Of a stretch of 64,000 nt of DNA, positions 19,480 through 38,386 are shown in pieces. The stretch's first letter is position 1, and each line of letters opens with the position of its first letter. The DNA lies in NCBI GenBank assembly GCA_016176405.1, contig JACOXG010000010.1, positions 33,078 to 97,077 on the forward strand, in the 5' to 3' direction. A model generated the notes under the pieces. It saw nothing but the letters and a program-made list of their open reading frames with translations, did not search any database and was not told the origin of the DNA. This DNA comes from Candidatus Daviesbacteria bacterium (GTDB lineage: Bacteria > Patescibacteriota > Microgenomatia > Daviesbacterales > UBA10151). The position numbers and the translations under genes were made by a program.

Positions 19480-21399
19480 TTGAAAATATCAGAATATCTT
19501 CCAGAGTTACCTGGTCTAATGCAGCAAGAGCAAAGATTAACTTCTCTTGCTGATCAATTGTCTCTAATAAAAGCTGATTCAGATACATATCGTGCCCCGT
19601 CCCTTGGCCTCGATACAATTATAAATACCTGGCTTAGAAATCAGTTAGTATATCGCCAAAATATGATGACTGATTTAATGAGAATTTCTAAAACTATAGA
19701 AGAAATACGAGCGCCGATTCATCATATAACTGCCGAAGTATTTCGTAGGGGTATTTCATGGAAGCCAAAATTCGCTGTTAAGTGCCAGGAATGCCAGACA
19801 GAATATAATGATGTCATGAAAGAATGTCCTAAATGTCATTCTACAGACCTAATATCTCCAGATGAAGGACAGAAGAAAAAATTAGAAAGTTTTCTTATTG
19901 ACTGTAACATATTTGATAATAGTTTAGAAGAAGTTTTAAGACAGTTTAATTATGACTTAAATGCACTTGATGATGCATTCCTGTATCTCGTTAAAGAATA
20001 CATGGCTGCTGAAGACGGAAAAATTAGATCTAAAGTAATCGAAGTGAGGCGATTGGATCCAGCCTTTATGGAGTTTGATTTAGATCCACAAGGTCTTCCT
20101 AAGAATAAGTCATTTCTTTGTTATATTCATAGAGATATAAATGTAGCCACAACTCCTGGGGCTTGTATTGAATGTGGCAGAACATTAGTCCCAGCAATGT
20201 ATAAATACTATCACAGAAATAAGCCGATGTATTTGCTTGATACTGAAGTGATACATTCTTCAAAATTTGACCCGAGCGAAACTTACGGTTGGAGCCCCAT
20301 ATTAACTATTTTTGAAAAGGCAATGACTATTATCGGCATGGATCGTAATATGTATCGTTATTTCTTTGAGCGCAAAATGCCTGCAGGGATGATAATGGTG
20401 TTTACGGATAACCCAGAGAGTCTTATAAAAGAACGGGCAGAGTTAGCCTTAAAGACTAGACAAGACCCAAATTATATTCCAATGGTTGCTGTATCGTCTA
20501 AAGGAAATCGTGGAAGAGTGGACTTTGTAAAGTTATTTCATACATTACAAGAAATGGACTATATGCCTGTAAGAAATGAAATAAGAGAGAGAATAGCATC
20601 TATGTGGGGAGTTACCCCAGCTTGGCAAGGTGCCCCAGATGCATTTGGTGGTATTTCAAATCAGACACAACAATTAACAGTGATGTCTCGTGTAGTAGAA
20701 ACAGATCAGAGATTATTTCACGATAAAGTTTTTCCTAGAATTATGGATTCATTTGGAATAACTGATTGGGAGTTAGAGCTTCCCATACCAGAAGAGAAAG
20801 CAGAAGCTACCAGAATTTCATTTGCTCAGCAAAAAATTAGTGCAGCAAATATGCTTCTCCAAATGGGCTTTGATGTAAAGGCTAAATCTCAGGAAGTCGG
20901 ATTAATTGATATTGATTTTGTAGTATCTGGTGAAGCAAAGAAGATAGATTATAGTTCAATGATGGGTGGAGGACAAGGGGGACTAGGTGGAATGGGGGGA
21001 GAAGGACTGCCAGGAGGGATTCCTGGATTAGAATTACCTGAAGAAGAGCAACCAAGTCAAAACCAATCACAGCAATACCCTGAACAAGGTTTGAGACTAA
21101 TGGAAAAAGCACACGGATGGGCAGACCAGATATTAAAAGCTGGATATTTTCCGATGATAAAACAAGTAAATCCAGTTGGGCCTGTGATTTGGTTTACTCA
21201 AAATAATACTGATTATGTGGCTAAGTTTGATAATAATATTTTGAAGGATATAAGTAAGGCAATCTTTCCCCGACTTCATGCACATGACGGTCGTCCTCCT
21301 CATGATCCAAATATTCCCCATAATACAGTAGATAGAAAATTACAGAGTGACAGCAAGATTTTCGAAGCAGAAGAGCCAGACGAAGTTGATAATGAATAG
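19480..21399 (+). CDS. putative portal protein (with zinc-ribbon insert and Gly-rich C-terminal segment)
   Basis: Size and position after the terminase. 'GGGQGGLGGMGGEGLPGG' low-complexity tail. Start is uncertain (TTG). Confidence 0.45.
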   Translation: MKISEYLPELPGLMQQEQRLTSLADQLSLIKADSDTYRAPSLGLDTIINTWLRNQLVYRQNMMTDLMRISKTIEEIRAPIHHITAEVFRRGISWKPKFAVKCQECQTEYNDVMKECPKCHSTDLISPDEGQKKKLESFLIDCNIFDNSLEEVLRQFNYDLNALDDAFLYLVKEYMAAEDGKIRSKVIEVRRLDPAFMEFDLDPQGLPKNKSFLCYIHRDINVATTPGACIECGRTLVPAMYKYYHRNKPMYLLDTEVIHSSKFDPSETYGWSPILTIFEKAMTIIGMDRNMYRYFFERKMPAGMIMVFTDNPESLIKERAELALKTRQDPNYIPMVAVSSKGNRGRVDFVKLFHTLQEMDYMPVRNEIRERIASMWGVTPAWQGAPDAFGGISNQTQQLTVMSRVVETDQRLFHDKVFPRIMDSFGITDWELELPIPEEKAEATRISFAQQKISAANMLLQMGFDVKAKSQEVGLIDIDFVVSGEAKKIDYSSMMGGGQGGLGGMGGEGLPGGIPGLELPEEEQPSQNQSQQYPEQGLRLMEKAHGWADQILKAGYFPMIKQVNPVGPVIWFTQNNTDYVAKFDNNILKDISKAIFPRLHAHDGRPPHDPNIPHNTVDRKLQSDSKIFEAEEPDEVDNE

Positions 21400-22375
21400 T
21401 TGTGAATGTGGTTGTGGTATAGAGTGTAAGAAGAGATTTGTTCATAATCATCAGAAAAGGAATGTTCATTTATCTGTTGAACACAAAATAAAACTTAGGT
21501 TGGCTGGATTGGGAAGAAAACAGTCTAAAGAGACAATTGAGAAGAGAGTTGCTAAGATAAGAGGAATAGCATGTTCTGAAAATACTAAAAGCAAAATTAG
21601 CGAGACATTAAAGAAATATGAAATTACTAAGGTTCATCGGGATGCTCTTTCTAAGTCTAAATATGGGAGGGTATTGAGCGAAGAGCATAAAAATGCTATT
21701 AGATTAAATCGTCCAGATTTTTCAGGTAATAAACATCCGATGTATGGCAAGCATCACTCAGAATCTACTAGAATTAAAATGTCTTTGTCTCAAAAAGGAA
21801 AGAAACATTTATATGCATATAAGTTTTCAGAAAAAGATAAAGTTAAAATATCTATAGCTAGAAAAAGTAAGAAATTATCGGAGCATCATATTGAAGCACT
21901 GAAAAAGTCTTGGAATAACCCAGAAGTAGCAGCTAGAAGATTATTTAGTATTTTAAGAAGTAATTTTAATAGACCCAATAAATCAGAAACAAGGTTGTCT
22001 TTACTTTTATCAGATTTAAATACAGACTTTAAATATGTTGGCAACGGAAGTTTTATTATTGATCATAAAAATCCAGACTTTGTAAATAAAGAATCTAAGA
22101 AAATAATTGAGTTACAAGGTTGTTACTGGCATGGCTGCAAAATTTGTTTCCCAAATTCTAAGAAATCAAATAATTTTCCAGATCGTCAACAAATTTTTAA
22201 ACCTGCTGGATATGATTCAATAGAAATCTGGGAGCATGAATTGAAGAGTCCAGAAGTAGTAATTAGCAAAGTTAAGGATTTTAATAGTTTAGATGAAATT
22301 GAAAAGGCATGTAAAGAACAGGAAAGAATATCTTTAATGAGCATTGCTTTACATGACAGAAAAATTAAAGATTAA
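21392..22375 (+). CDS. homing endonuclease: zinc-finger N-terminus, NUMOD3 repeats, C-terminal Vsr/DUF559-like nuclease
   Basis: Repeated 'G..HSEETK.KIS.S.KGK'-like NUMOD3 units ('YGKHHSESTRIKMSLSQKGKK', 'SEEHKNAIRLN', 'SEHHIEALKKSW'). C-terminal 'PDF..IIELQGCYWHGC' resembles the Vsr core 'FVDGCFWHGH'. Confidence 0.6.
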   Translation: MNSCECGCGIECKKRFVHNHQKRNVHLSVEHKIKLRLAGLGRKQSKETIEKRVAKIRGIACSENTKSKISETLKKYEITKVHRDALSKSKYGRVLSEEHKNAIRLNRPDFSGNKHPMYGKHHSESTRIKMSLSQKGKKHLYAYKFSEKDKVKISIARKSKKLSEHHIEALKKSWNNPEVAARRLFSILRSNFNRPNKSETRLSLLLSDLNTDFKYVGNGSFIIDHKNPDFVNKESKKIIELQGCYWHGCKICFPNSKKSNNFPDRQQIFKPAGYDSIEIWEHELKSPEVVISKVKDFNSLDEIEKACKEQERISLMSIALHDRKIKD

Positions 22376-24392
22376 CTCGTCTGTGTTTGAGGTTGATCTA
22401 GCCTTTACTCCGTTTAAACAATTTGTCGGTCTCTCACAACACCAGGATTTAAAAGCTAATTCTGGTATGCTTTTTATTTATCCTAGTAGTAAGCAAAGAA
22501 TTTTTAATACGTTGCAAATGAAATTTCCTATTGATTTTGTCTGGATAATGCATGATGGAAGAATTTCTAGTATAACAGAAAACGTACCTCCAGAAAAACA
22601 GCAAGTGGAGTCTATTAGTCCAGCAAAATATATTTTAGAATTAAATGCTGGAGAAGTTAAAAAGAACAACATAAAAGTTGGAGATATGGTAGAGAACTTA
22701 CCCGATGATTCAGATATTGTACTTAGGAAAAGCAATGATTTCATTCATTTACAGGACTATAAATCAACTGGGAATTTAACCGAAGTAAAGACAGACCATC
22801 CATATCTTCGTAGGAAAAGGTCATATGGACTTAAGTTGCCGTCATTGTCTAAGGTTAATAGTTCATTAAGTCAAATATTCAAAGAATGGGTGGAAAAACA
22901 ACCTCGTCCAGGTCTAGTCCCAAAAAGTGGTAATTGGAAATATCCATATAGATGGATTAGACCAAGTAAGATTGAAGAAGTAAAAGATAGGTCAAATGAT
23001 AATTTTCAAAAAATAGACAGGTTTAGAAGTGCATTATCTAGAAGAAAGTCAATAGAATCTATGGACGATGAAGAGGCCATAGACAAGAATCTGGACACAT
23101 TTCATTTATTATTAGAAAACTTAGGGGCCTCGAAAAAAGAACTTGATGCTTCTGATGATTCATTACTTTCTTATTATTCATGGAAATTTGAGGAAAGATC
23201 ATTAGGGGCTGCCATGCTTAGATATGGTATTGCAGTTAGTTTAGGAAAGGATCCAATTGTAGAATTGAAGGACTATGGCATTTCTGATAGCATTATTAAA
23301 AAAATCGGGCAAGACAAAGATTATGTAAAGTTGACTACACAAATTCTACAAAAAATAACGTCATTATATATGAAAAATAAGTATGGTGATACAGTTCATT
23401 TATATAGAGGTATTCCAAAGGGAGAAAAAGTTAAGACTGTAAATGTATTATCCTACACGACAGACCCTACTGTAGCAGCTCGTTTTGCGGGGAAGGATGG
23501 GAGTATTATAGGGGAAGATATTTCAACTGATCAAATTTGGGCAGCAGATGAAATATTTTATCCAAGGGCAGAAAGTGAAGTTATTGTAGGTCTAAAAAAC
23601 AATTCAATAAATAAGCAATTAAACGGAACAGTGTATACATCAGAAGATGTATCAAGCTCAGTGGCTGATAAATGGGCCCCATTAAATCCGGATTGGAAGA
23701 ATTATGCGAAGAGAAAGACTTCCCCCAATAAGATTTTAGATGAATGGCTTGAAAAACAGAATGCAGACTTGGTCCCTAAAAAAGTCCCAATTCATTTGCA
23801 AACAGGTAAAGTTGTTTCGGGCATTAGGTGGGTTAAGCCAGAAAAATTTGAAGGAGAGACTCAGAAAGCTTTATCATTTGATGATGCTTCAGAGGCAAAT
23901 AAATGGAGAGACAAAATTAGAGGGTCTAAAATGGGGTCTGAAGAAAGAGCTACTTTACGAGATTATATAGGATTCGGAAATACGATGACAAATACATATT
24001 TACGACAAGGGTATAAAAAGAATCCATTACTTTTAAATAAAATCTCAGCCTTAGATTCTCTTATTCAAAAAACAACTATTCCTAATGATGTGATTGTTTA
24101 TAGAGGGACAGAGAATTTAGATTTATCCATTGGGGATATATTTATAGATAAAGGGTTTTTGTCTACTACATTAACATCTAATATGGCGCGTCTTTTTGTT
24201 ACAAATAAAGGTGCCTTATTTAAAATTCATGTAAAGGCAGGGACTCCCGTAACTTTAGGGCAAGACAAAGAGCTAGAATTGATTTTTGGTCGCGAATCAA
24301 AGTTTATAGTAAAAGATAAATATTCTCCTCCTCCGGACCCATATTTTCGAGGCAGATATACAATATATGAATTAGATATGGTGTCTTCTTAA
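22344..24392 (+). CDS. multidomain protein: DUF192 domain followed by two ADP-ribosyltransferase (R-S-E class) domains, each preceded by the conserved N-module
   Basis: DUF192 'GMLFIYP..FPIDFVWIMHDGRI'. ART1 'HLYRG..SYTT..ESEVIV'. ART2 'VYRG..LSTTL..ELELIF'. N-modules at about 22881-22980 and 23738-23850. Confidence 0.55.
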   Translation: MLYMTEKLKINSSVFEVDLAFTPFKQFVGLSQHQDLKANSGMLFIYPSSKQRIFNTLQMKFPIDFVWIMHDGRISSITENVPPEKQQVESISPAKYILELNAGEVKKNNIKVGDMVENLPDDSDIVLRKSNDFIHLQDYKSTGNLTEVKTDHPYLRRKRSYGLKLPSLSKVNSSLSQIFKEWVEKQPRPGLVPKSGNWKYPYRWIRPSKIEEVKDRSNDNFQKIDRFRSALSRRKSIESMDDEEAIDKNLDTFHLLLENLGASKKELDASDDSLLSYYSWKFEERSLGAAMLRYGIAVSLGKDPIVELKDYGISDSIIKKIGQDKDYVKLTTQILQKITSLYMKNKYGDTVHLYRGIPKGEKVKTVNVLSYTTDPTVAARFAGKDGSIIGEDISTDQIWAADEIFYPRAESEVIVGLKNNSINKQLNGTVYTSEDVSSSVADKWAPLNPDWKNYAKRKTSPNKILDEWLEKQNADLVPKKVPIHLQTGKVVSGIRWVKPEKFEGETQKALSFDDASEANKWRDKIRGSKMGSEERATLRDYIGFGNTMTNTYLRQGYKKNPLLLNKISALDSLIQKTTIPNDVIVYRGTENLDLSIGDIFIDKGFLSTTLTSNMARLFVTNKGALFKIHVKAGTPVTLGQDKELELIFGRESKFIVKDKYSPPPDPYFRGRYTIYELDMVSS

Positions 24393-24393
24393 A

Positions 24394-25353
24394 ATGCAAG
24401 ATCGATACATTTGGAATAAGGGTGATATAGTTCTTTTGGATAAAGAATCTGAATTTGAAAAACAATTTAATATTCCATGTCCTGTAGGTTATCATGAACA
24501 TGCAAATATCCAAGGCTGCCATCCAATGTCTCAGCACCATAGGTTTGAGCATAGAGCCGTAGGGGCAGGCTCTGGAAAAGAGGCAGCAGAATATACATTC
24601 CAAAGACCAGAATCAGAAGAAGAGGAAGAGCAATTAACAGATATTACAATACCTGCAATAGCAAATGCACATGGTATTAGTTTAAGTGCATTGTGGGAAA
24701 ATCTTAAAAATCTATATGGGAAGAAATTAGAAGAGCAAAAATATCAAGAGCAGAAATATACACAAGAAGGAAAGCTGCTCACTTATTCTCCAATTCATCT
24801 AACCCCCAGTCAAATATACACAGCTCATTTTTTGGCAGAGAAAATAAAGAGACGCCAACTTTCAAGGCCAGGAAAAGTAGTATCGATAAAGCCAGCAGCC
24901 GTGGCTAAAGTAATGTTAAAGCAATTCCCATGGATCCAAAAATCTTTTGATTTAGAAATTAGAAAATCATTAGGGGATGACATTAAGCTATCTGTAAAAG
25001 CAATTATAGAGGACGAAGCAGGAAGATTGTTGATATTGAAAGATAGATATTCTGATTTTTGGGACCTTCCGGGTGGGCATGTAGCAGATGGAGAGTCATT
25101 ACATGATGCTCTTGTTAGAGAAGTAAAAGAGGAAACAAATTTAGATGTTATTGGTGCAGAAGAATTATTTACTAGAGAATTAACATTGGGGAAAGAGACA
25201 AAACCAGTTGTATTTTATAAAACCGGTGCGGAAGGAATAGTTCATTTATCTAAAGAGCATAATAATTTTAGGTGGATAAATCAAGAGCATTTTGACGAGT
25301 ATAATCTTGGAGTTTTCTCTGGCATAATTCATGAGTACTTTACTACAAAATAA
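24394..25353 (+). CDS. Nudix hydrolase
   Basis: Nudix box 'GGHVADGESLHDALVREVKEETNL'. Confidence 0.7.
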   Translation: MQDRYIWNKGDIVLLDKESEFEKQFNIPCPVGYHEHANIQGCHPMSQHHRFEHRAVGAGSGKEAAEYTFQRPESEEEEEQLTDITIPAIANAHGISLSALWENLKNLYGKKLEEQKYQEQKYTQEGKLLTYSPIHLTPSQIYTAHFLAEKIKRRQLSRPGKVVSIKPAAVAKVMLKQFPWIQKSFDLEIRKSLGDDIKLSVKAIIEDEAGRLLILKDRYSDFWDLPGGHVADGESLHDALVREVKEETNLDVIGAEELFTRELTLGKETKPVVFYKTGAEGIVHLSKEHNNFRWINQEHFDEYNLGVFSGIIHEYFTTK

Positions 25354-26218
25354 GCTAGCCGATTGGCTTGAAAAACAAGCTATTGATAGATCTAGACTTG
25401 TGCCAAAAAAAGTTCCTATCCATTTACAAACAGGTAGGACGATAGAAGGAATAAGATGGATCAACCCTGATGCTGAAAGTACTAATGAATTAACTGATTT
25501 GGCTAGTAAGGCTAATACTTTAAAATATGACAAGGGAGATCGTGATGCAGAAGATACGATTATGGATTGGGCGGAGAAAAATAACGTTAATCCAGAAAAA
25601 ATGATTCAAGCTTGGACTTTGATAACTTCAACTTGGGGAAAGGGGGACCCAAAGGCTACACAAGGAGGCAAAGAATACGTAGCAATTCGTTCAGCGGCTT
25701 ATTCACTATTAAATATAGATGGGTATCAAGATGAAAAGAAATATTTTGTTGAGACAAGAAAAGTACAAGAAAAAATATTTAATAAAGAGTGGGAATTAGG
25801 TAAATCTATAGCTAAATATTTTATTCCATTATATATAATATCCCAAAAAGCTCTTAATAAATCTATGGCCCCAGATAAGACAATTACAGTATATAGAGGT
25901 GTTGGGGGAAAATTTGCTGTAGATATCATTAATTCAATAGAAAGGGGAGAAAAAGAATTTGAAATTCCAAATAGCGGGATTTCTAGCTGGGCTTTAAATA
26001 GAGAGACAGCCTCTATGTATGCTTCATCTTCTGGATTTCCACAAGAGAAAGCACGAAACGGAGTAGTTTTATCAAAAAAAATTTTGGTAAAAGATATTTT
26101 TTTGTACCCAGAAGGTATTTATAAGCATTCTTCTTCTGAACCAGATGAAGTCTTAGTCTTTGGGGCTGCTGTCAATAAATTTTCTAAGGATGAAATTAGC
26201 CAGGAATTAACATGGTAA
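25331..26218 (+). CDS. ADP-ribosyltransferase (R-S-E class) with N-terminal conserved module
   Basis: 'ADWLEKQ..LVPKKVPIHLQTGRTIEGIRWINP' module. ART motifs 'VYRG', 'ISSW', 'EPDEVLV'. Confidence 0.5.
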   Translation: MSTLLQNKLADWLEKQAIDRSRLVPKKVPIHLQTGRTIEGIRWINPDAESTNELTDLASKANTLKYDKGDRDAEDTIMDWAEKNNVNPEKMIQAWTLITSTWGKGDPKATQGGKEYVAIRSAAYSLLNIDGYQDEKKYFVETRKVQEKIFNKEWELGKSIAKYFIPLYIISQKALNKSMAPDKTITVYRGVGGKFAVDIINSIERGEKEFEIPNSGISSWALNRETASMYASSSGFPQEKARNGVVLSKKILVKDIFLYPEGIYKHSSSEPDEVLVFGAAVNKFSKDEISQELTW

Positions 26219-29200
26219 TTTTTTCTAATATTGATTTTGACTTAGAAAATAGTTTTTGGATTAATCAAAAAAAGTTCAATTTAATTAAAAAAATATCTAT
26301 TTGCAAAGAATGCAACAGTGACTGTGATTGTATAAAAGGACAATCATGTGAGTGCAAACATAACTGCATGTGCCCCAATATTTTAGTAGAAGATAGTCTA
26401 GATGATGATTTTATATTAGACAAAACCTTTTTTCAAAATGAATTTCTAGAAAAAGCTGTAATTTCGACTCCTACTGATAAAGAAGGGAAGTTTGATGCTA
26501 CTAAAGTCCCAATAGGCGCGAGTGTTTGGATAACTATTGGGAATCCTGAGTCTCCTTTACATGGTCGTCATGTCATGATAACAAAAAGACCTGATGGTCT
26601 TATGGCAATTACGGGTGGGGCGGGTGTTGACAAAGAAACAGCTGCACGCAGACATCTTATTTTAACTGGAACTCCTAGAAAAACAAAGAGAGATGATGAA
26701 TTAGAAGAAATAGTTGATGAGGCAAAGAAATATAATGAGCCCCTATTAGTAGAGAGAAAGCAGTTACAGAGAGAAGCAATAGAAGAAATCAAAGTTGCTG
26801 CTGATGATATGAAAAAAGCATTTGGGCTTTCAGATATGAATAAGAAAACAATGCTAGAAAAGAAAGATGAAATACAAAATTATGTTGAATCAATCCTTGG
26901 GGAGGATGAAAAGGGACAAGCAAAACGTCTTACAGACACAGTGGCAAGGCATCTAGTATTAGCAGAACGCAAAATTTCAGAGCATATACAAAGAGACAGA
27001 GAAGTAATATTTGCTAAAATAGGAAAGAGAATTACTAGATTTTCAGAAGAAGAATTACCAAAGGCGCTGGAAGAAGTAAATGATTCTATTCAAAACTATT
27101 CTTCTTCTGTTATAAATTTGCCTGATTTAAGTGATTTAAAAGGTCTTTCTTCCCTACAGCAAGAGTTAGTCATTGCTAATTACTTTGATAAACAGGCAAA
27201 TGATTTCTTTAGCGCAGAAAAAATAGACCATATTGAAAAGAAAGATGTCCCACAGATTACTTTGGGAGAAACGGTAAAGCCGTTAGAGATTAGATCTTCC
27301 GAAGAATTACATAATGCTATAGATAAAGTAAAGCATTATTGGGAGACAAGATCAAAGGCAGAAGAAATAACATCTAGCCTAAAAAGAATTCCGTTAAAGC
27401 CGTCAAGTAGCAGCACTATTGCTGAACTACGAAATGACTTAAAAGGCATGAATATAGAAATGGATTTCGATGAAATAGTAGATAAGGCTGAACAGAATTT
27501 AGTTAGATGGCAAACTAATAATTCAGCCTTAGCTTTTTATGATGCAGTGGGAGACTATTGGAATGATGATACAAGCCTGTCAGAGCAATTAACAAATAAA
27601 GATAAATTTGATTCTACAATGCAGTTCCATATAAGCTCTGGGGCTGCTACAGCATTAGCTTCATTGTCAAAAGAATATCTTGGGACAAGACTTGATACAT
27701 TGCGATTAATAAATACCGCTAATTTGGAGTCAGCTGTTGCAATTACTGCGCTTGAAATCAGGCAGAAGTTCGCTAAAGATCCAAAAGCATATGATGAAGC
27801 ACTAGTAAAAATAAAAGACTTTAATGCTAAGAATCAGATAGACACTGAGAAAATTGCTCTAGATAGACATGCTACGTTAAAAACACAGTATGATGAGATT
27901 CAAAAACAAAAGTCTACTGGAGAGCTATTAGATAAGATTAGAATTTCAAACTTAGAGTTGGAGAATATAGTAGAGCAAAAGAGAAATCTAGGCTCTGCAT
28001 TAGGTTCATTGCAAGCATCAGCAACATTCTATGATTATTTAACTAAATTCAAGACAGCTAAAGATGATATTGTTCAGATAAATGTTGGTAATAATATAAA
28101 TGATGCCAATGATATGGTAGATAGGCTAAGACTTCGCAAAGGTTATGAAGTGGATACATCTGATCCAGACAACATTAGAATAAAGGCTGGTTTGTCTTCA
28201 TTTGAAAAGTTCGTTAATGAAGAGAAGGATATAAAGTCCAAGGCTGACCAATATGATAAGCTAAAGACAAGCATGGATGGAATTATAGAAGATGAAGATG
28301 GGAGGTTAGTAGCAGATAAATATGATGTTCCTGGGTGGAAAAATGAATACATAGATGAACAAGGCAATACCCAGCAATATAAATGGAGAGTAGAGCAAAG
28401 GAATGATATAAATTGGCTCCTTGATGCTACTAGAAGCACTCAGGAAAATCCTTTAGGGGAGGGTGGGGGATTAGTCACACGAGTAGTAGGCGCAGGAAAG
28501 ACAAATACTGCATTGGGGTTCTTTGCCAACAAGATAAATGATAATAAAGACTATAAAGGATTAGTAGTAGTTCCAAAAGGTAGAGCGCAACAATGGGTAG
28601 ACGAGGCAAAGAAGTTTACTGACTTGAATATTGAGTTAATTCCAGATGGTACAGCTAAAGACAGGGTAGATGAAATATTGTCTAAAAGTAAGCCAGGAAC
28701 TATATATGTCACAGGACATAGAGAAGCAGCCCGTTCTCATTTAACATTAGAAGCTTTACAAACCAGCAAAGAATTTTCGGATAAGAAATTCCATGGATTA
28801 GTAATTGATGAGCCACAAGAATTGCAAGCAAGGGGTCAAAGTGGAAATATAGGAGAACTTGGCAAAAGACTAATGCATCTACCAATGCAGCATAGAGTAG
28901 GTTTAACAGCAACTCCAGCTAGAAGAAATCCACTTGAGGTATATGATTTAATAAAGTGGACAAGCGGGGCAAAAGATATAGGAGATAAAGCATCATTCAA
29001 GAGAGTATTCTCAGGATTTGGTAGTGGGACAAATGCCCAAGATACTGCTATTAGAAAATTATATTTCAATACAATTCAGCCATATATTAGTGGTGATAGG
29101 ATAACAACCCCTAATTTTAAGGTAAAACAAGAATCCATAAATTTTAATCGTACTTCCACTCAAATTGCTAAACAAAAAGAAATAGAGTCTCAAAGTGCCG

Positions 29201-29868
29201 CATATATAGAAAGGCGAAAGAACGAAATTGTAAGAGAAGTGCAAGCAAATCCAGCACACCCTCTTAGGAGACTAATAAATTGGCAATTTTCAGCCCCTAG
29301 AAAAGCCGTAGAAATGGCAAGAACTGAAGTAGAGAACATGCATAGGGATAATATGGATGATGGGGATTATAGGAATAATTCAAAGCTTATGAAGTTCAAG
29401 GAAAGCTTTGAGAAAGACCCAAAGAAGAAGCGTGTTCTTTTTATAGATTCTAGAACACAGCGTGTATCTTTGATGGAGATGTTTAAGGATATTGGGTTAA
29501 AGCCTAACCAAATCAAAAATATTGCTGCTACAACGACAGCAATTACGGGTGAAGAAATGGCAAATAGAGTAAAAGATTTTAAAACAAACAAAGATATTCC
29601 AATTATCTTGATTGATACTAAAAGTTCTAGCGGGTATAATTTGCAAGCAGGGGACGTTCTTGATGTGCTTGGGACCCCCCAGGATGCGAGCGTGTATCTC
29701 CAAGCTCAGGGGAGACTGGCTAGAATGCCTAGAAAGGGAGATGTAGAAATAGCTACATATAAGTATAATGATAATCCTATCGAGCAAGCTAAATGGAATC
29801 AACTTGAAGCCCAACTAAAAATTTTAAGAGCAAGCTCTCCAGGATTATTCCCAACACAAAATGAATAA
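26212..29868 (+). CDS. large (1218 aa) multidomain protein: Cys-rich N-terminus, coiled-coil middle, C-terminal SF2 helicase-like ATPase
   Basis: Walker A 'VVGAGKTNTALG' and Walker B 'LVIDEPQELQ'. Helicase-C-like 'ILIDTKSSSGYNLQAGDVLD'. N-terminal 'CKECNSDCDCIKGQSCECKHNCMC'. Confidence 0.5.
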   Translation: MVIFSNIDFDLENSFWINQKKFNLIKKISICKECNSDCDCIKGQSCECKHNCMCPNILVEDSLDDDFILDKTFFQNEFLEKAVISTPTDKEGKFDATKVPIGASVWITIGNPESPLHGRHVMITKRPDGLMAITGGAGVDKETAARRHLILTGTPRKTKRDDELEEIVDEAKKYNEPLLVERKQLQREAIEEIKVAADDMKKAFGLSDMNKKTMLEKKDEIQNYVESILGEDEKGQAKRLTDTVARHLVLAERKISEHIQRDREVIFAKIGKRITRFSEEELPKALEEVNDSIQNYSSSVINLPDLSDLKGLSSLQQELVIANYFDKQANDFFSAEKIDHIEKKDVPQITLGETVKPLEIRSSEELHNAIDKVKHYWETRSKAEEITSSLKRIPLKPSSSSTIAELRNDLKGMNIEMDFDEIVDKAEQNLVRWQTNNSALAFYDAVGDYWNDDTSLSEQLTNKDKFDSTMQFHISSGAATALASLSKEYLGTRLDTLRLINTANLESAVAITALEIRQKFAKDPKAYDEALVKIKDFNAKNQIDTEKIALDRHATLKTQYDEIQKQKSTGELLDKIRISNLELENIVEQKRNLGSALGSLQASATFYDYLTKFKTAKDDIVQINVGNNINDANDMVDRLRLRKGYEVDTSDPDNIRIKAGLSSFEKFVNEEKDIKSKADQYDKLKTSMDGIIEDEDGRLVADKYDVPGWKNEYIDEQGNTQQYKWRVEQRNDINWLLDATRSTQENPLGEGGGLVTRVVGAGKTNTALGFFANKINDNKDYKGLVVVPKGRAQQWVDEAKKFTDLNIELIPDGTAKDRVDEILSKSKPGTIYVTGHREAARSHLTLEALQTSKEFSDKKFHGLVIDEPQELQARGQSGNIGELGKRLMHLPMQHRVGLTATPARRNPLEVYDLIKWTSGAKDIGDKASFKRVFSGFGSGTNAQDTAIRKLYFNTIQPYISGDRITTPNFKVKQESINFNRTSTQIAKQKEIESQSAAYIERRKNEIVREVQANPAHPLRRLINWQFSAPRKAVEMARTEVENMHRDNMDDGDYRNNSKLMKFKESFEKDPKKKRVLFIDSRTQRVSLMEMFKDIGLKPNQIKNIAATTTAITGEEMANRVKDFKTNKDIPIILIDTKSSSGYNLQAGDVLDVLGTPQDASVYLQAQGRLARMPRKGDVEIATYKYNDNPIEQAKWNQLEAQLKILRASSPGLFPTQNE

Positions 29869-30619
29869 GTTAGATTTATTAAAGGACTTTTTAGAGAAAC
29901 AACAGCTTGGGCTTGTCCCAAAGAAAGTTCCTGTTCACTTACAAACTGGTAAGGTTACTGAGGCAATCAGATGGGTAAAACCTCAGCACGATACAGATTT
30001 ACGAGAAATTGACAGACTGAAGAAGATTTCAGATAAGCATGAATTAATGTATGAGTTAGAAAAAGCATCAAATAATGTTTTGCAAGCTTTTATGCATGAT
30101 AATCGCGACATTATAAGACATGTTGTGGCGGCATATATTTTGAAAGATTCTGTAGGAAAAGTTTTTGACGGGGATATTATTTTTCATGGAAATTTAATAG
30201 GGGAAGATATTGACATTCCTTATGAATATAATATATCTGACAAAAGTCTAAATTTGGAGTATGTCAAAGTACATAAAGCTCTTACTAGGCAGATTTTAGA
30301 TATTGCTTTTCCAGACACAAATATATTTGTGTTATATCGTGGGACAAGCGAAATAAAAGATATAGACAAATTAGCTAATGGTGATAGAATCAAAATTACC
30401 CAGAATCCGATTAGTAGCTGGACATTAAAGAAAAGTGTGGCCCGAAACTTTGCTTTGGAGGCTGGGGCTAACGGAAAATTGCTTAAAACAATTGTAAATA
30501 AAGATGAAATCTGGTCAACATTTGCGACACATGCCTATAAGGGCAATGAAACAGAAATACTATTAATAAACAGAAAGGGAGGTAGGGAAGTAGAGAATAT
30601 AGGTATTTACAGTGAATAA
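29861..30619 (+). CDS. ADP-ribosyltransferase (R-S-E class) with N-terminal conserved module
   Basis: 'KDFLEKQQLGLVPKKVPVHLQTGKVTEAIRWVKP' module. ART motifs 'LYRG', 'ISSW', 'ETEILL'. Confidence 0.5.
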   Translation: MNKLDLLKDFLEKQQLGLVPKKVPVHLQTGKVTEAIRWVKPQHDTDLREIDRLKKISDKHELMYELEKASNNVLQAFMHDNRDIIRHVVAAYILKDSVGKVFDGDIIFHGNLIGEDIDIPYEYNISDKSLNLEYVKVHKALTRQILDIAFPDTNIFVLYRGTSEIKDIDKLANGDRIKITQNPISSWTLKKSVARNFALEAGANGKLLKTIVNKDEIWSTFATHAYKGNETEILLINRKGGREVENIGIYSE

Positions 30620-30920
30620 GCAACTCATCAATTTAGACAATTCAATAGAGAATTCAGACTGGATAAAAAAGATTAAAGATAATATCGGTCTTGAAAAGCA
30701 ATCAGAAAAATCGTCCCCTAGTGAACTTGATGCATTAAGTATGTCAATAGATGTATCTACAAGGAAATATCTATTGGAATTGCTTGACTATAAAAAGCAG
30801 ATTAAAGAACAACTAAAGAATTCTGATAATGATGTATTGTATCAGCGACAGTTAAAGGACGCATTGGAAATCATAGATAATAATATAAATCGCATAAGGT
30901 TTGATGGAATACTAGATTAA
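30612..30920 (+). CDS. hypothetical protein
   Basis: ORF only. Confidence 0.3.
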   Translation: MNKQLINLDNSIENSDWIKKIKDNIGLEKQSEKSSPSELDALSMSIDVSTRKYLLELLDYKKQIKEQLKNSDNDVLYQRQLKDALEIIDNNINRIRFDGILD

Positions 30921-31447
30921 TGCCAGTCAATATTGAAAAACAGCAAGGCTTAAAGATTCCACACAAGGTATGGGTGTATCCAAAGACTGGCGGGAAGCCG
31001 TTTATGACCACAAGGTGGAGGAATATTCCTGTAAATTATTATACTGGAGATCTTAAATTCGTTGATAGCAAAGAATATACAGGAGACTTACAGAATGTAT
31101 ATAAGCAATGGATAAAGTTTCTGCAAGGCTACCAAGGGCAATATAGAAAAATGCTTCCAGTAATTGCACTGCAAGAAATATTATCCAAAAATAGCAATGG
31201 TCTATTAGCTGTGTCTCATAATAGAATAGTAGGAATAGCGACATATACTAAAGACAATCAGATTTCTATAATAAGTTCTTCCCTATTTGAGATGGATACC
31301 CCAATAGAATCATTTCTGGTTAGTTCTTTGAAACAAGAATTGAAAAATAGAAATATATTAGTTGATGAGCCAGATGCTATGTCAGATTCAGAGAATAATT
31401 TTGATGATTTTGTGGATTCTGTGCATTTTGTAGATGGAAATGAATAA
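30920..31447 (+). CDS. hypothetical protein carrying a diverged copy of the N-module
   Basis: 'NIEKQQGLKIPHKVWVYPKTGGKPFMTTRWRNIP'. Confidence 0.35.
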   Translation: MPVNIEKQQGLKIPHKVWVYPKTGGKPFMTTRWRNIPVNYYTGDLKFVDSKEYTGDLQNVYKQWIKFLQGYQGQYRKMLPVIALQEILSKNSNGLLAVSHNRIVGIATYTKDNQISIISSSLFEMDTPIESFLVSSLKQELKNRNILVDEPDAMSDSENNFDDFVDSVHFVDGNE

Positions 31448-33617
31448 ACTAGATTTATTAAATGATTTTCTAGAAAAGGCTCGTGTCTATCTTCAGCCTG
31501 GAGAAAAGCCTCCTGAGAATGTTCAAGTTTATCAAGGAAAGAGAGGGGGCAAGTACTATCTTTCTAGGACTGGGCTTGCTGAGAAATGGTACTCAAAGCC
31601 AAAACAAAAGTTTGGCGCATTAGCAGAACAAGATTATCCTACACTAGAGTCTAGGAAACAAGTGTTATTAACATTTGTTCCGCCAATGTATAGAGATAAG
31701 AAAGTTACTTTTAATCCAAAATTATTAAAATCTTCAAATCCTAAAATGCTGTCTGCTGCCAAAGAATGGCTGGTGAAGTGGGTGGCAAAAGACGGTAAAG
31801 AGCAGGTAGCCTATTCACAGAATCACCAAGAAAAGAGTGACATAGAAAAATGGAATCGAATGAAAGTAATGTCTAAAAAGCTACCTTTGATTAGGAAGCT
31901 ATATAATAGTCTATTAGATAGCAAAGAGGAGTCAGATAGAGCTATTGGGGCTATTATTTCATTGTTAGATATTACAGGCTTTAGAATAGGAAAAGAGCAA
32001 TATGCTGAAGAGCATGGTACTTATGGCATTTCTTCCCTTCGCTGCAGCCAAGTTAGATTATTGCCAGACAGCAAAATAGAACTTAATTTCATTGGCAAGA
32101 AAGGAGTCGAGTTCAAAGGAGAAAGATTTATAGTCCCAAATAAAGTTTATAATTTCTTGTCTAGATGCAAATTAAGCTCAAAGAGAATGGATAAGATATT
32201 TCCTGTAGATGAAGGCGATGTATATAAAGTATTATCAGACTTTGGTGTGAGCGCTAAGGATTTCAGGACATATCATGCCAATAGACTATTATTTTCCGAA
32301 TTGATTTCCGGCCCCCAATATAAAGGCAATGAAATAAAGAGAGAAAATAGAGTAAAAGAAATAATAAAGGAAATAGCAGAAAGATTGGGGCATAATTGGA
32401 CTACGTCAAGAAAAGCCTATATGAATCCGTTTATTGTCAGAGCATATTTAGATAAGGAAGATTTATCCGAATTTGGGGCTATTTATAAAGAGGACATCGA
32501 TTTAGAAAAGTCTTATGCTTCTGATAAATGCATGGAATGTAAGATGTCTCCTGTTATTGAACTATTGTGGGCAGAAGGGATGGCTCATGCATGGTTTTGT
32601 GATAAGCACTATAAAGAATTCAAAAAAGAGCACTCAGATGATATATCTTCAGAGCGGGAATTAAAATGGGGAGTTGCCTCAAAACATTGGAAGAACGGGG
32701 TGCCAACAAAAGAGGATGCATTAAAACTAGAAAAAAATGATGCTTATCCCTTAAATCCTGATTCAGAAGAGATGTATAAATGGATTGATGATAATTTAAT
32801 TAAATCAGGATTAGTAATTGGAGGAAAGCAGCCACAAGGAGCAAAGACAATAGGGAGACAAATAGAGCAGAGATTGTATTCTACATTGCAAGTAGCTATT
32901 GACAAGTATTTGTCTAGTTTAACTGGAACTGAGCCAAAAACAGAGGTAATTGAAGGACTGATAGAAGTACTGAAAAAGTGGAAAGAAGTAAATGGCCCAG
33001 TAGCAGATGAAGCATTTGAGAAATTATTTAAGGCAGGATTCCAAGCTGGGACAATGTCAGCTGGAAGAATGGGCACATATGATAAGTTAGCAATGGATAT
33101 AATAAAGAATGGAAAATATAGAATAGGAGAGAGAATAGTCTTATTCGCAGATGATGTAGTAAAGGACTTTGCCAAGATAATTACTAAAGCATATACACCA
33201 GAGGGAATATTTTCATTACAGTCATTAGTCAAGGAGATGAATGAAGCTGTACCAAGTAAGAGAAGCGATTTGGAAAGAATAAGCAGGACTGAAACTTCGA
33301 ATATTAGCAATCTAGGCCGAATTTTTGGCTGGGGAGATGACAAGTATAAATATTTTTATAATTATATCTGGAACAGTAGTCCCGATACAAGACGTAGGGA
33401 AATGAAAAAGATGCGCAGTGAATGGTCGCCTTTGACATTCGATGAAGCTCTGTATCTTTGGACACATAATAAACAGCAATTATCTAATGGGAAGTGGCAA
33501 AATGGAAATATAAATTGTCGTTGTAGTTTGTCTCGAACGCCAAGAGAGGATGAGTATAAAGGAAATAGATTTGAAGGACAGCCAATTTTTGAAAAGACTT
33601 TGGACTTTAGTTTCTAA
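31434..33617 (+). CDS. type IB DNA topoisomerase domain fused to a putative Mu F/SPP1 gp7-like head-morphogenesis region; N-terminal conserved module
   Basis: TopIB blocks: 'GFRIGKEQY' (~ 'LRAGNEKE'), 'GISSLRCSQVRL' (~ 'GCCSLRVEHI'), 'FRTYHAN' (~ 'FRTYNAS'), and catalytic-Tyr block 'TSRKAYMNPFI' (~ 'TSKLNYLDPRI'). The C-terminal 'ISRTETSNISN' recalls the Mu F family RTE motif. N-terminus 'MNKLDLLNDFLEKA'. Confidence 0.65.
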   Translation: MEMNKLDLLNDFLEKARVYLQPGEKPPENVQVYQGKRGGKYYLSRTGLAEKWYSKPKQKFGALAEQDYPTLESRKQVLLTFVPPMYRDKKVTFNPKLLKSSNPKMLSAAKEWLVKWVAKDGKEQVAYSQNHQEKSDIEKWNRMKVMSKKLPLIRKLYNSLLDSKEESDRAIGAIISLLDITGFRIGKEQYAEEHGTYGISSLRCSQVRLLPDSKIELNFIGKKGVEFKGERFIVPNKVYNFLSRCKLSSKRMDKIFPVDEGDVYKVLSDFGVSAKDFRTYHANRLLFSELISGPQYKGNEIKRENRVKEIIKEIAERLGHNWTTSRKAYMNPFIVRAYLDKEDLSEFGAIYKEDIDLEKSYASDKCMECKMSPVIELLWAEGMAHAWFCDKHYKEFKKEHSDDISSERELKWGVASKHWKNGVPTKEDALKLEKNDAYPLNPDSEEMYKWIDDNLIKSGLVIGGKQPQGAKTIGRQIEQRLYSTLQVAIDKYLSSLTGTEPKTEVIEGLIEVLKKWKEVNGPVADEAFEKLFKAGFQAGTMSAGRMGTYDKLAMDIIKNGKYRIGERIVLFADDVVKDFAKIITKAYTPEGIFSLQSLVKEMNEAVPSKRSDLERISRTETSNISNLGRIFGWGDDKYKYFYNYIWNSSPDTRRREMKKMRSEWSPLTFDEALYLWTHNKQQLSNGKWQNGNINCRCSLSRTPREDEYKGNRFEGQPIFEKTLDFSF

Positions 33618-35587: not shown

Positions 35588-36895
35588 ATGCCAATTAGTA
35601 GATCTCAGTTAAACCAGTTAATTTACAAAGCTATCGTGCAAGGTATCCAGCGCAATGGAGACAGAATTTTTAATCAGTCCCAGCAAACTTCTGAATGTTT
35701 TGTACCTGTGGACACGGGCATGTTAAAAAAGTCGGGATATGTGAAGCAACTTTCTAACGGCGTAGAAATTGGCTATATTGCCCCATATGCATGTATTCCA
35801 TACTTGAAACGACAAAAAATAAGGCTTTCTAATGGGGCCCAATTGAATTTAACCAAGCTTAGAATTGGAGATCTAATTGATGATGGATTTGGAAATTCAA
35901 GAGAAGTTATAGCTATTAAAAAGCAACCAAAACAAAAATATAGAATTTTAGAAATTGTTACTGAATCTGGAAAAAAGATTTTGGTAACTGATAATCATAA
36001 AATTTCTATGGGAGGTGATGATTTCAGAGAAGCAAAAAATTTGATTATTGGAGACTCTATTGGTATTGATGATAAATGGGTTAATTCTGTAATAGAGTGT
36101 AAAGTCTGTCATAAAAAAATGAAAGCTATTTCTATTACACATTGTAAAACTCATAGTTTAACTCAAAATGACTACAAGAAATTATATGGGCCTCTAAAAA
36201 ATTGGAAAAGAATTGGCTATAGATCTTGGAATAAGGGACTTAATAAGTTTTCTGATGCTAGAATAGCAAAATATGCTGAAAAATTAATCGAAAATACATC
36301 ATTTAAAAAACCTGAAGTAAAAGAAAAAATGAAGCTAAATCATTGGAGTAAAAGAGGAGGTAAGTCCTGGAATATTGTTAAACGAGTTTATGTTAAATGT
36401 GGGAGTAAAGAATGTAAAAATCTAGTCAAAATATTACTAACTCAAGAAGAATATTATAGGAAACATAAAACATTTTGTTCAAAACTATGCGAATCTAATT
36501 GGAGAGCAATTAGATATTCTGGAGAAGGAAATCCAAGATTTGGAACAAAATGTTCAGCAAAAGGTACTTCTAGGGGCGGCTTTAGAGAAGATCTAGGACA
36601 TTATGTTAGAAGTAGCTGGGAAGCTAATTTTGCTAGGCTGTTAAAATATTCTAATATATCATATTATTATGAAGCTAAACGATTTGACTTGAAAGATGGA
36701 AGAACTTATTGCCCAGATTTTTTAATTCCGTCTCTTAATTGTTATTTAGAACTTAAGGGATATGACGGAGATAATAGATTTGAAAAAGCCAAACAAATTT
36801 ATAGTCAATTGAATTTTATTAAGATTGATGGAAATGTATATAAAGATTTAGAAACTATGTTTAGTAATGTTATTCCATTGTGGGAATATAGATGA
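35588..36895 (+). CDS. N-extein (HK97 gp10-like 'VPVDTGMLKKS' protein) plus intein N-terminal region (blocks A, B) with embedded PD-(D/E)xK/Vsr-like homing-endonuclease domain
   Basis: Intein block A 'CIPYL' begins at Cys69 (nt 35792). Block B is 'VTDNHKI'. Endonuclease-like 'PDFLIPSLNCYLELKGYDGDN'. Confidence 0.55.
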   Translation: MPISRSQLNQLIYKAIVQGIQRNGDRIFNQSQQTSECFVPVDTGMLKKSGYVKQLSNGVEIGYIAPYACIPYLKRQKIRLSNGAQLNLTKLRIGDLIDDGFGNSREVIAIKKQPKQKYRILEIVTESGKKILVTDNHKISMGGDDFREAKNLIIGDSIGIDDKWVNSVIECKVCHKKMKAISITHCKTHSLTQNDYKKLYGPLKNWKRIGYRSWNKGLNKFSDARIAKYAEKLIENTSFKKPEVKEKMKLNHWSKRGGKSWNIVKRVYVKCGSKECKNLVKILLTQEEYYRKHKTFCSKLCESNWRAIRYSGEGNPRFGTKCSAKGTSRGGFREDLGHYVRSSWEANFARLLKYSNISYYYEAKRFDLKDGRTYCPDFLIPSLNCYLELKGYDGDNRFEKAKQIYSQLNFIKIDGNVYKDLETMFSNVIPLWEYR

Positions 36896-37762: not shown

Positions 37763-38386
37763 ATGATGAACAATAATTTTATGGGCGGAGAATTGCTACT
37801 CCCAAAACCATTTGAATTAAGACACTCTCAGTCTATACATGCATATTTAGCTAGGGAGCGAATAGTATTTATGTACGGAGCTATTGTAGGCTATCCCCAA
37901 AGAATGGATATATTCAATGCCTCCCAAATTGCTGATACTCTTTTGGTGTTGAATAGAATGGATAAGACCAAACCTATTTGGCTAGTTATTGATAGTGAAG
38001 GAGGCTTTGTAAATGATGGTTTAGGTATATATGATGTTATTAAAACTATAGAAGCTCCTGTATATACAGTAGGAAGATCTTGTTTTAGTATGGCAGCTGT
38101 GCTATTGACTGTTGGAGAAAAAGGGCACAGGTATTTGTACCCTCATTCTAAGGTGATGCTTCATCTTCCACAAGGAAGTTCATCAGGAGATTCTGAGGAA
38201 GTAAAGATTCAAGCAAAGGAGCTAGATAAAGTTAAGGATGTCTTAGTTGACATATTAATAGAAAATGGAGTAACAAAACCACGAGCTAGGATACTGAAAG
38301 ATATAAACAGAGAGCACTGGATGGATACACAAGAAGCAATTGCTTATGGCTTGGCAGACAAAGTTTTGATTAAGGGGCTGCTGTAA
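37763..38386 (+). CDS. ClpP-like serine protease (S14 family)
   Basis: Aligns to ClpP: 'IDSEGGFV' (~ SPGG), catalytic Ser 'GRSCFSMAAV', His 'MLHLPQG', and a C-terminal Asp. Confidence 0.75.
   Translation: MMNNNFMGGELLLPKPFELRHSQSIHAYLARERIVFMYGAIVGYPQRMDIFNASQIADTLLVLNRMDKTKPIWLVIDSEGGFVNDGLGIYDVIKTIEAPVYTVGRSCFSMAAVLLTVGEKGHRYLYPHSKVMLHLPQGSSSGDSEEVKIQAKELDKVKDVLVDILIENGVTKPRARILKDINREHWMDTQEAIAYGLADKVLIKGLL

Follow-up and report, generated by a model that had tools for sequence, protein, structure and literature searches.

Proteins that phages inject into their host decide the first minutes of an infection, through anti-defence, host takeover and the switching of transcription, and they are hard to recognise from sequence. 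Among the systems described so far, the polyvalent proteins of phages and conjugative elements carry two to fifteen effector-type domains on one polypeptide, and the hubs of their domain network are MPTase, ADP-ribosyltransferase (ART), SNF2 ATPase, MuF, ParB and methylase (Iyer, Burroughs, Anand, de Souza and Aravind 2017, PMC5512222). The same study proposes that polyvalent proteins undergo autoproteolysis by zincins, makes no mention in its main text of a junction or tag element, and describes these proteins as scarce in archaeal elements. In phage SPN3US a single prohead protease (gp245) acts at one motif, cutting N-propeptides off the ejection proteins, the capsid protein and the portal as well as its own C-propeptide, and in T4 the propeptides direct proteins into the prohead core (PMC10052503). 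The MuF polymorphic toxins of temperate phages consist of an N-terminal MuF domain and a C-terminal toxin, with accompanying immunity genes (Jamet et al. 2017, PMC5576092). The stretch analysed here, 64,000 nucleotides (nt) of contig JACOXG010000010.1 (positions 33,078 to 97,077; hereafter the window), comes from a tailed virus whose genome measures ~110 kb; it covers ~60% of that genome, with ~34% G+C and all genes on the plus strand. Between the portal gene and a MuF-like region it holds an island of nine consecutive open reading frames (ORFs) that share a short peptide element, a helix motif which in several instances is followed by a basic β-hairpin. We propose that this tag probably marks effectors which are packaged into the virion, cut by the prohead protease and ejected into the host.

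The helix motif, [FWY]-[LIV]-x-K-[QA], is present in 9/9 ORFs of the island, either within the first 30 amino acids (aa) or at a domain boundary, and a basic β-hairpin comes after it in six cases. Two forms of the hairpin can be distinguished, type 1 (GLVPKKVxVxxxGKxxxxxRWV+P) and type 2 (RVYLQP..NVQV..G.RGGKYY), the latter in ORF8, which joins a type IB topoisomerase (TopIB) to the MuF-like domain. A six-frame regular-expression scan found [DEN][FW][LV]EK[QA] exclusively in the island and in real reading frames (nt 22884, 23742, 25361, 26440, 29885 and 31464), and LVPK[KS] four times. Three of the four type-1 copies are full (the second copy of ORF1 and those of the ORFs starting at 25331 and 29861), the first copy of ORF1 being a short variant (PRPGLVPKSGNWKYPYRWIRP). 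Aligned with each other, the module copies give the consensus x-L-x-x-[FW]-L-E-K-Q-x(3-8)-LVPKKVP[IV]HLQTGK-x(5)-IRW[VI]KP. The preliminary description of this DNA had counted six modules, the sixth a diverged copy in the ORF at 30920 (ORF7); the module is confirmed, and the helix motif is in fact present in every ORF of the island. The ORF7 copy is diverged yet clear, and is backed by the alignment and by its relatives; its profile score (E 2.6e-15) is circular, since the search profile had been built from five sequences, ORF7 among them. The ORF at 31434 (ORF8) had been thought to share the leading helix only, but its N-terminus carries the second hairpin variant (RVYLQPGEKPPENVQVYQGKRGGKYY), which is 47-48% identical over ~50 aa to the N-termini of the metagenomic protein P0033 and of gp109 of Haloarcula virus HCTV-1. 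Similarly, the Nudix and helicase genes had been regarded as interleaved accessories; both of them, and the ORF at 30612 (ORF6), possess the helix motif without a recognisable hairpin, as EFEKQ (aa 20-24), EFLEKA (aa 77-82) and GLEKQ (aa 26-30), respectively.

Over the 4,399 aa of the island plus the prohead protease, [LIVMF]EK[QA] occurs 11 times compared to a shuffle mean of 0.88, and 0/2,000 shuffles reach 11. In the AlphaFold2 (AF2) model of ORF5 the helix comprises residues 3-15 and the β-hairpin residues 19-26 and 32-39, with a predicted local distance difference test score (pLDDT) of ~80. At the DNA level the module copies are ~67% identical with many synonymous differences, and the module is thus conserved at the protein level and not by recent duplication. 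A recombination cassette or a recent duplication as the origin of the module was ruled out for this reason and because the tag is found on unrelated folds.

The motif is also found in head proteins. The capsid gene lies outside the window and was reached by an 8 kb extension via an identical Logan contig (72 kb in total). Within the 22.4k aa encoded by these 72 kb there are seven matches to the strict motif [DEN][FW][LIV].K[QA] (shuffle mean 0.42, maximum 3). Six of the seven occurrences fall within the island, and the seventh, DWLSKQ, corresponds to residues 26-31 of the major capsid protein, 3 kb past the window (major capsid (head) protein, phrog_24667 2.5e-12; N-terminus MPNDVSLQEFIAQARRGVYSGALGPDWLSKQTYF; L015 9530-10882, extended coordinates 67161-68513), a location that would be that of a short capsid propeptide. 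The prohead protease (ORF at 38514) has IFLEKQQVG at aa 120 (nt 38874-38891), 60 aa before the protease domain, which may be compared with DFLEKQQLG in ORF5, and KFLEKD at aa 574 (nt 40236-40247) in its C-terminal part. An acidic 261-aa protein encoded just upstream of the capsid gene, a putative scaffold, contains six loose Phi-x-K-[QAS] matches. With the conserved K taken as P1, the 59 instances across the family have L, I or V at P3 in 48/59, an aromatic residue at P4 in 28/59, E at P2 in 26/59 and Q or A at P1′ in 39/59. Since the motif is common to effectors and head-assembly substrates, as in SPN3US and T4, we read it as a prohead-protease site of the form Phi-x-K. The invariant LEK of the module had earlier been likened to the L-x-E site of T4. 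A literal site of this kind was ruled out, the E being variable while the K is conserved and the capsid protein having DWLSKQ; moreover, the protease is of the S78/HK97 type and stands next to a ClpP homologue.

The explanation that we hold to be probable is that the island proteins are virion-packaged, ejected effectors, in effect an unfused polyvalent protein, with the prohead protease as the enzyme that would cut them at the motif. Each product would start with a leader whose last element is an amphipathic helix bearing [FWY]-[LIV]-x-K-[QA]; in six products (seven tag copies) the basic, two-stranded hairpin would begin 3-11 residues after the helix motif. The precursors would go into the procapsid while the head assembles, and the S78 prohead protease, possibly with the adjacent ClpP homologue, would cut at or beside the invariant K, the prohead protease likewise cutting the capsid N-terminus, its own flanks and the scaffold. 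Cleavage would strip the leaders and split ORF1 into DUF192, ART and ART. As the presumed cut falls ahead of the hairpin, every mature enzyme would retain a hairpin of its own, which might hold the protein on the packaged DNA or on the capsid interior until ejection; this is the weakest step of the model. Upon infection the enzymes would enter the host along with the DNA. The ARTs would then modify host proteins, the Nudix enzyme would handle ADP-ribose/NAD-type nucleotides, and the helicase and TopIB would act on DNA, while the MuF-like C-terminus could tie the TopIB protein to the portal, by analogy with SPP1 gp7. The core of the preliminary description, a constant N-terminal module in front of variable cargo with likely packaging and processing, held in the computational tests; packaging and cleavage, like the exact bond, the role of the hairpin and the host targets, are points that we infer.

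The cargo of the island is varied (Table 1). The module had been placed at the domain boundaries of the DUF192-ART-ART protein ORF1, and this is where both of its tags lie; the order DUF192, Cys-rich segment, tag, ART recurs in protein P0028. Four R-S-E ARTs had been predicted. The C-terminal domain of ORF1 is firmly established as one of them by its Pfam match, the only one among the island ARTs, while the other three (DRAT 0.02-0.035 or no match) are moderately supported by alignment and by a model of moderate confidence. The four ART regions are paralogous. An alignment of 12 members, the four of the window plus eight relatives found in other viruses, shows no exception at the R of YRG or at the catalytic E, and a mostly conserved S. 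Within the window the catalytic R, S and E occur in the correct order, with the S in 4/4 domains and ExE in 3/4 (ORF3 has EPDE). A PDB profile search with the ART family gave only a marginal match (NarE, 2kxi, E 0.027). The structure of a module-ART pair, suggested earlier as a check, was predicted for ORF5 and resembles the ART fold at moderate confidence (mean pLDDT 65, ~75-83 for the ART part): the top Foldseek match in the PDB is C2-I (5.6e-4), followed by CDTa, iota-Ia and KptA/Tpt1, and among the matches in the viral structure library are the arginine ART of S-PM2 and one 'minor capsid protein'.

Table 1. Positions of the features discussed in the text (nt of the window)
Feature	Position	Strand	Remarks
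Terminase large subunit (TerL)	14813	+	
Portal protein	19480..21399	+	upstream border of the island; phrog_18178 3.5e-47, Phage_portal
NUMOD3/Vsr homing endonuclease gene	21347-22375	+	inserted between portal and effector island, overlaps both neighbours
Effector island, nine consecutive ORFs	22344-33617	+	all ORFs present at the positions listed below
ORF1, polyprotein: DUF192, tag, ART, tag, ART	22344..24392	+	called gene starts at 22353, 679 aa
DUF192 domain of ORF1 (aa 15-117)	22386..22694	+	Pfam PF02643, 6.1e-24
Tag copy 1a, short variant IFKEWVEKQPRPGLVPKSGNWKYPYRWIRPSK	22860..22976	+	short variant also in P0002, P0010, P0024, P0032, P0042
ART domain 1 of ORF1 (LYRG, LSY, ESE)	23220..23672	+	family alignments, invariant R and E; no Pfam match
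Tag copy 1b ILDEWLEKQNADLVPKKVPIHLQTGKVVSGIRWVKPEK	23718..23852	+	regular expression, alignment, profile
ART domain 2 of ORF1 (VYRG, STT, ELE)	23898..24314	+	Pfam ADPrib_exo_Tox 1.2e-15
Nudix protein	24394..25353	+	leader MQDRYIWNKGDIVLLDKESEFEKQ, motif nt 24454-24465, Nudix domain nt 24988-25293; Pfam NUDIX 7e-14
ORF3	25331..26218	+	tag nt 25337-25480; ART ~nt 25778-26200 (VYRG, SSW, catalytic E aligned)
SNF2-type helicase, 1218 aa	26212..29868	+	Cys-rich N-terminus, EFLEKA nt 26440-26457, helicase core nt 28384-29727
ORF5	29861..30619	+	tag nt 29861-29995; ART nt 30242-30607 (LYRG, SSW, ETE)
ORF6, 102 aa, helical	30612..30920	+	leader ends GLEKQ (nt 30690-30701); overlaps end of the ORF5 ART gene
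ORF7	30920..31447	+	diverged tag nt 30920-31039 MPVNIEKQQGLKIPHKVWVYPKTGGKPFMTTRWRN; GNAT-like domain nt 31052-31348
ORF8	31434..33617	+	type-2 tag nt 31434-31574 MEMNKLDLLNDFLEKARVYLQPGEKPPENVQVYQGKRGGKYY; TopIB nt 31794-32465; Zn-ribbon-like middle; MuF-like C-terminus nt 33219-33530
Mre11-like exonuclease	33632	+	
Minor head protein, intein-split	35588-37323	+	with endonuclease domain; continues in ORF 36892-37323
ClpP-family protease	37763..38386	+	Pfam CLP_protease 1.1e-44; full-length homologue
Prohead serine protease, S78 family, intein-interrupted	38514..40403	+	Peptidase_S78_2, S78, Hint/intein; head maturation protease PHROGs

The poxvirus-like TopIB that had been recognised in ORF8 is well supported by a Topoisom_I match of 2e-31 and by the pentad R-K-R-H-Y, which aligns to variola TopIB (2h7f; FRIGK, GKKG, FRTY, GHN, KAY). 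At its other end (aa 596-699) ORF8 shows an NCRC motif and a match to Phage_Mu_F (PF04233) over profile positions 18-111 of 112, with 24.2 bits vs a gathering cut-off of 29.6 (E 6e-5), and likely contains a MuF domain. The location of the island between the portal and a Mu F-like region can be maintained as far as the position is concerned, with a domain score below the Pfam threshold. ORF7, previously an unknown protein behind a diverged tag, has kept the tag and gained a predicted GNAT-like fold: the top Foldseek matches of its AF2 model (pLDDT 70, of moderate confidence) are all GNAT acetyltransferases, and in P0008, P0010 and P0043 an ORF7-like domain precedes TopIB on the same polypeptide. 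The helicase matches SNF2-rel_dom (best, 1e-10), DEAD, ResIII and Helicase_C in Pfam, and a homologue is encoded upstream of the polyvalent protein P0010 in locus L004. A Cys-rich CxxC...CxC...CxC segment precedes its helix motif (aa 30-56, 26299-26379); P0028 has this segment as well, placed after DUF192 and before the tag (aa ~195-225), and the segment may be a zinc-binding leader. In P0002 an ORF6-like domain (aa ~365-449) follows an ART on the same polypeptide, C-terminal to it and preceded by an IEKQ motif; cleavage might free this domain as an inhibitor or immunity module. Two other leaders were observed. One, [IV]N[LI]D-x(2-5)-N-x-DW, forms the N-terminus of genes lying directly after, and overlapping, ART genes (window 30612-30700 and 26212-26290; L006 6045 and 7532; P0044 and P0024), and a third leader type, R[FY][VI]W...D..[FL]LD, is found on the Nudix ORF, P0002 and P0013.

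The tag is not confined to this genome. A full HMMER scan of the tag profile against 1.84 billion representative proteins gave 43 proteins at E<=1e-3, 39 of them from outside the genome. Among 50 non-window instances of the tag, 28 have their start in the N-terminal 35 aa and the other 22 lie further inside, between the domains of polyvalent-type proteins; eight proteins have two or three copies at the threshold used, and weaker extra copies are visible, for example in P0010. The cargo outside the genome includes ART, TopIB, zincin peptidase, zeta toxin, a PI3/4-kinase-like domain, the ORF7-like (GNAT-like) domain, DUF192, ART-PolyVal, LPD1 and MuF, with database matches of the tag-bearing proteins to ART-PolyVal, LPD1, Zeta_toxin, Peptidase_M90 and Phage_Mu_F. 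Two degenerate DNA patterns with fixed gaps led to six more IMG/VR loci, of which 6/6 are genuine tag loci. Word-seeded protein searches (ORF5, a four-paralogue profile and a 27-sequence tag profile) found almost nothing beyond the own genome, tblastn of the ORF5 tag vs GenBank phages gave no match, and no accessible paper was found that contains the literal tag strings.

Genes that are separate in the island are fused in other viruses, with tags at the joins. P0010 consists of a GNAT-like (ORF7-like) domain, a tag, a zincin, a short tag, a second GNAT-like domain, a short tag and TopIB. A 599-aa protein of locus L008 is made up of Nudix, hairpin and ART, and an 823-aa protein of the IMG/VR locus L009 of Nudix, tag and AAA ATPase, which again speaks for the Nudix gene being part of the tagged set. 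Two pairings recur in the island, ART with Nudix and TopIB with the GNAT-like domain.

The tag variant of L009, used in tblastn vs GenBank phages, pointed at weak E-values to Bacillus phage CP-51 and Exiguobacterium phage vB_EalM-132, and both were confirmed by reading the proteins. In CP-51 (type 1) the tag-bearing gp27, gp28 and gp30 are encoded directly upstream of portal, protease, scaffold and capsid, and the same is true of the Exiguobacterium phage; tag-bearing genes also adjoin portal, protease, scaffold and capsid genes in L008, L009 and L010. The tags of CP-51 are preceded by IDISKA, with the capsid N-terminus being VDALNKALSAGHE, the protease containing VDEVEKALSAGYE and the scaffold being full of Phi-x-K-[SA]. 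In L009 the tag has AEFEKA, the capsid protein ELAKAMSAG and the protease ITKAMSAG. For CP-51, L009 and the Exiguobacterium phage alike, Phi-x-K-A-[LM]-S-A-G occurs both at the N-terminus of the capsid protein and in the tail of the protease, Phi-x-K-[SA] abounds in the scaffold, and a sequence of this form stands before the tags. CP-51 gp30 (181 aa; L014 625-1167), the third tag-bearing protein of this phage, consists for the rest of an extremely Lys-rich tail, which would be consistent with DNA binding inside the capsid.

HCTV-1 (L017, NC_021330.1, 60000-80000), a member of the Druskaviridae and the nearest isolated virus by portal and capsid protein, has the gene order TerL, portal, 1046 aa, 675 aa, MuF, a 1210-aa zeta-toxin protein, protease and capsid, and thereby the same portal-to-protease block as the window. 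Its gp109 and gp106 carry the type-2 tag (LEK..RVY..P..NVQV..G..GG.YY), and gp107 gives an ART-like fold match in Foldseek. HCTV-1 differs from the island in that a regular expression for the type-1 hairpin found none, in its cargo and in that its proteins are annotated as hypothetical or zeta toxin. Pfam gave no match on CP-51 gp27 and gp28 or on HCTV-1 gp106, gp107 and protease.

Compared to the known systems, the island has most in common with the polyvalent proteins. ART, SNF2 ATPase and MuF are present in the window, and zincin peptidase, ParB-like, kinase, LPD1 and ART-PolyVal domains in its relatives; the genes lie among TerL, portal and head genes, and delivery with the DNA is predicted in both cases. 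ORF1 and ORF8 are multi-domain proteins, and P0010, P0008 and the 599-aa protein of L008 are truly fused, whereas the other seven ORFs of the island have one cargo domain each. The island ARTs also differ in being of the R-S-E type (YRG, S, E) and not of the H-Y-D (Tox-ART-HYD2) clade, and the island illustrates an R-S-E ART in surroundings of the polyvalent type. Further cargo that sets it apart from polyvalent proteins consists of TopIB, DUF192 and Nudix, and no MPTase is found in the window. Since none of the island ORFs contains HExxH, processing by an own zincin was ruled out for the island proteins.

The closest functional analogue of the tag would be the capsid targeting sequence of T4. 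Like Alt and the other targeted proteins of T4 and the ejection proteins of SPN3US, the island proteins have a short N-terminal leader ending in a three-residue motif of the hydrophobic-x-charged kind. In those phages the motif is common to ejection proteins, capsid, portal and protease, and here to internal proteins, capsid, protease and, loosely, the putative scaffold. An ADP-ribosyltransferase is likewise found among the injected proteins, its packaging in the case of the island being presumed. On the other hand, the motif is Phi-x-K-[QA] as opposed to L/I-x-E or A-x-E, the protease is of the Peptidase_S78/S78_2 (HK97-type) family and not of the gp21 type, the conserved hairpin after the leader has no counterpart in T4, and the tag is reused at internal junctions. 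The cargo-loading peptides of encapsulins, which are usually C-terminal and are not cleaved, offer an analogy only: there, too, a short conserved peptide is found on diverse enzymes destined for the inside of an HK97-fold shell, but without sequence similarity to the tag.

Several observations weigh against packaging and cleavage as proposed here. AF2 places helix and hairpin together at pLDDT ~80, possibly as one compact mini-domain that is never cut. The model leaves unexplained why the DUF192 domain and the Cys-rich leader, when freed, would have no hairpin, and there are two adjacent candidate proteases, the ClpP homologue and S78. Much of the weight for a protease site is carried by one match in the capsid protein, a single instance of a short and degenerate Phi-x-K-[QAS] motif whose enrichment in the scaffold was judged by eye. 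No virion proteomics for CP-51 or HCTV-1 was found in the accessible literature. To this must be added the sub-threshold score of the MuF domain, the three ARTs without a significant database match and the modest mean pLDDT of the ORF5 model. On a rival reading, helix and hairpin would be an uncleaved adaptor that docks the enzymes to a common partner (portal/MuF, scaffold, capsid interior or DNA), and the likeness to capsid protein and protease would reflect a shared docking surface, comparable to the loading peptides of encapsulin cargo, instead of a site of cleavage. The helix is set with hairpin residues 19-39 at the best confidence of the whole ORF5 model, the hairpin (L, P and K invariant, G nearly so) is better conserved than the residues near the putative cut, and short stretches of the ORF5 model align in Foldseek to tag-bearing proteins of CP-51/JL. 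We nevertheless think such an adaptor unlikely, though it deserves to be taken seriously, because helix motifs without any hairpin stand exactly at leader/domain boundaries (Nudix, ORF6, protease, capsid protein and the ART/ORF6-like junction of P0002), and because the spacer between helix and hairpin ranges from 3 to 11 aa. Moreover, docking would require no more than a single copy on each polypeptide, but the multi-domain proteins have one per domain.

The preliminary description had seen in the island an arrangement like that of polymorphic toxins. On such a reading the proteins would be MuF-type toxins for inter-host competition, in which the module would be a trafficking domain and small downstream ORFs such as ORF6 would confer immunity. 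Such toxins do share with the island a constant N-terminal and a variable toxic C-terminal part, a head-associated MuF fused to an enzyme, frequent ART toxins and a hypothesised injection with the DNA, and ORF6 overlaps the end of an ART gene as an immunity gene might. It is nonetheless improbable that the island proteins belong to this class: the sole MuF is C-terminal, with a topoisomerase as its partner, the reverse of the order in MuF toxins, and the ARTs bear the helix-hairpin tag in place of a fused MuF. Part of the cargo is not toxic in kind (Nudix, SNF2 helicase, GNAT-like, TopIB), no clear immunity gene is present, the other ARTs precede the Nudix and helicase genes instead of small immunity-like ORFs, and in P0002 the ORF6-like domain is fused in cis to the ART. 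An integrase was not noticed among the scanned ORFs of the window, a weak point given the share of the genome covered. The term polyvalent proteins therefore fits better. A still fainter prospect is that of ordinary, unpackaged host-takeover enzymes of early or middle expression, the module being a regulatory or localisation peptide or having been inherited via gene duplication. The paralogy of the four ART proteins does mean that their sharing of the module is partly a matter of common descent, and metabolic genes are mixed among the structural ones in this genome. However, the tag occurs on unrelated folds (ART, GNAT-like, TopIB, zincin, kinase and zeta toxin), its DNA copies have diverged to the extent given above, the site between portal and MuF/protease is kept in distant viruses, and the motif is common to capsid protein and protease.

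Going beyond packaged and trimmed effectors in one virus, we put forward more tentatively, with the odds somewhat against it, that helix plus hairpin might be a portable 'load, cut and keep' tag of bacterial and archaeal tailed viruses, in which the helix would load the protein, the protease would cut at Phi-x-K-[QA] and the hairpin would retain the product. If true, injected effectors could be read from genomes, including those of metagenomic viruses of uncultured hosts, the tag would explain how polyvalent proteins are dissected into single effectors within the capsid, and it would be a candidate peptide for loading foreign cargo into capsids. The tag can be tested in two cultured viruses, CP-51 for type 1 and HCTV-1 for type 2.

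With respect to the remainder of the genome, the closest relatives of the portal are portals of haloarchaeal viruses, and both portal and major capsid protein are 26-28% identical to those of haloarchaeal tailed viruses (HVTV-1, HCTV-1/5) and of methanogen-assigned viruses. The contig is labelled Candidatus Daviesbacteria, a candidate phyla radiation (CPR) bacterium, by NCBI, yet the head genes are nearest to those of archaeal viruses, whereas the study of polyvalent proteins cited above describes these as scarce in archaeal elements. Bacterial-type GroEL and ClpP are also encoded in the window. The intein of the S78 prohead protease is located at ~aa 320-461 (C...HN/C). In the portal protein a Gly-rich stretch is followed by a C-terminal extension of ~100 aa starting with LRLMEKAHGW at aa 541 (aa 541-639, 21100-21399). 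The extension holds further Phi-x-K-[AQ] matches, and the portal may be trimmed as well. An unusually large number of cellular-type genes is interspersed among the structural ones, namely those for aldehyde dehydrogenase, ribonucleotide reductase, a GluRS/GlnRS catalytic-domain protein, GroEL, RNA ligase, DUF932 and DUF3150 (11415-12902, 16398-18671, 41663-42604, 48155-49726, 49729-50343, 45018-46025 and 55120-55974), and an RtcB gene lies just past the end of the window.

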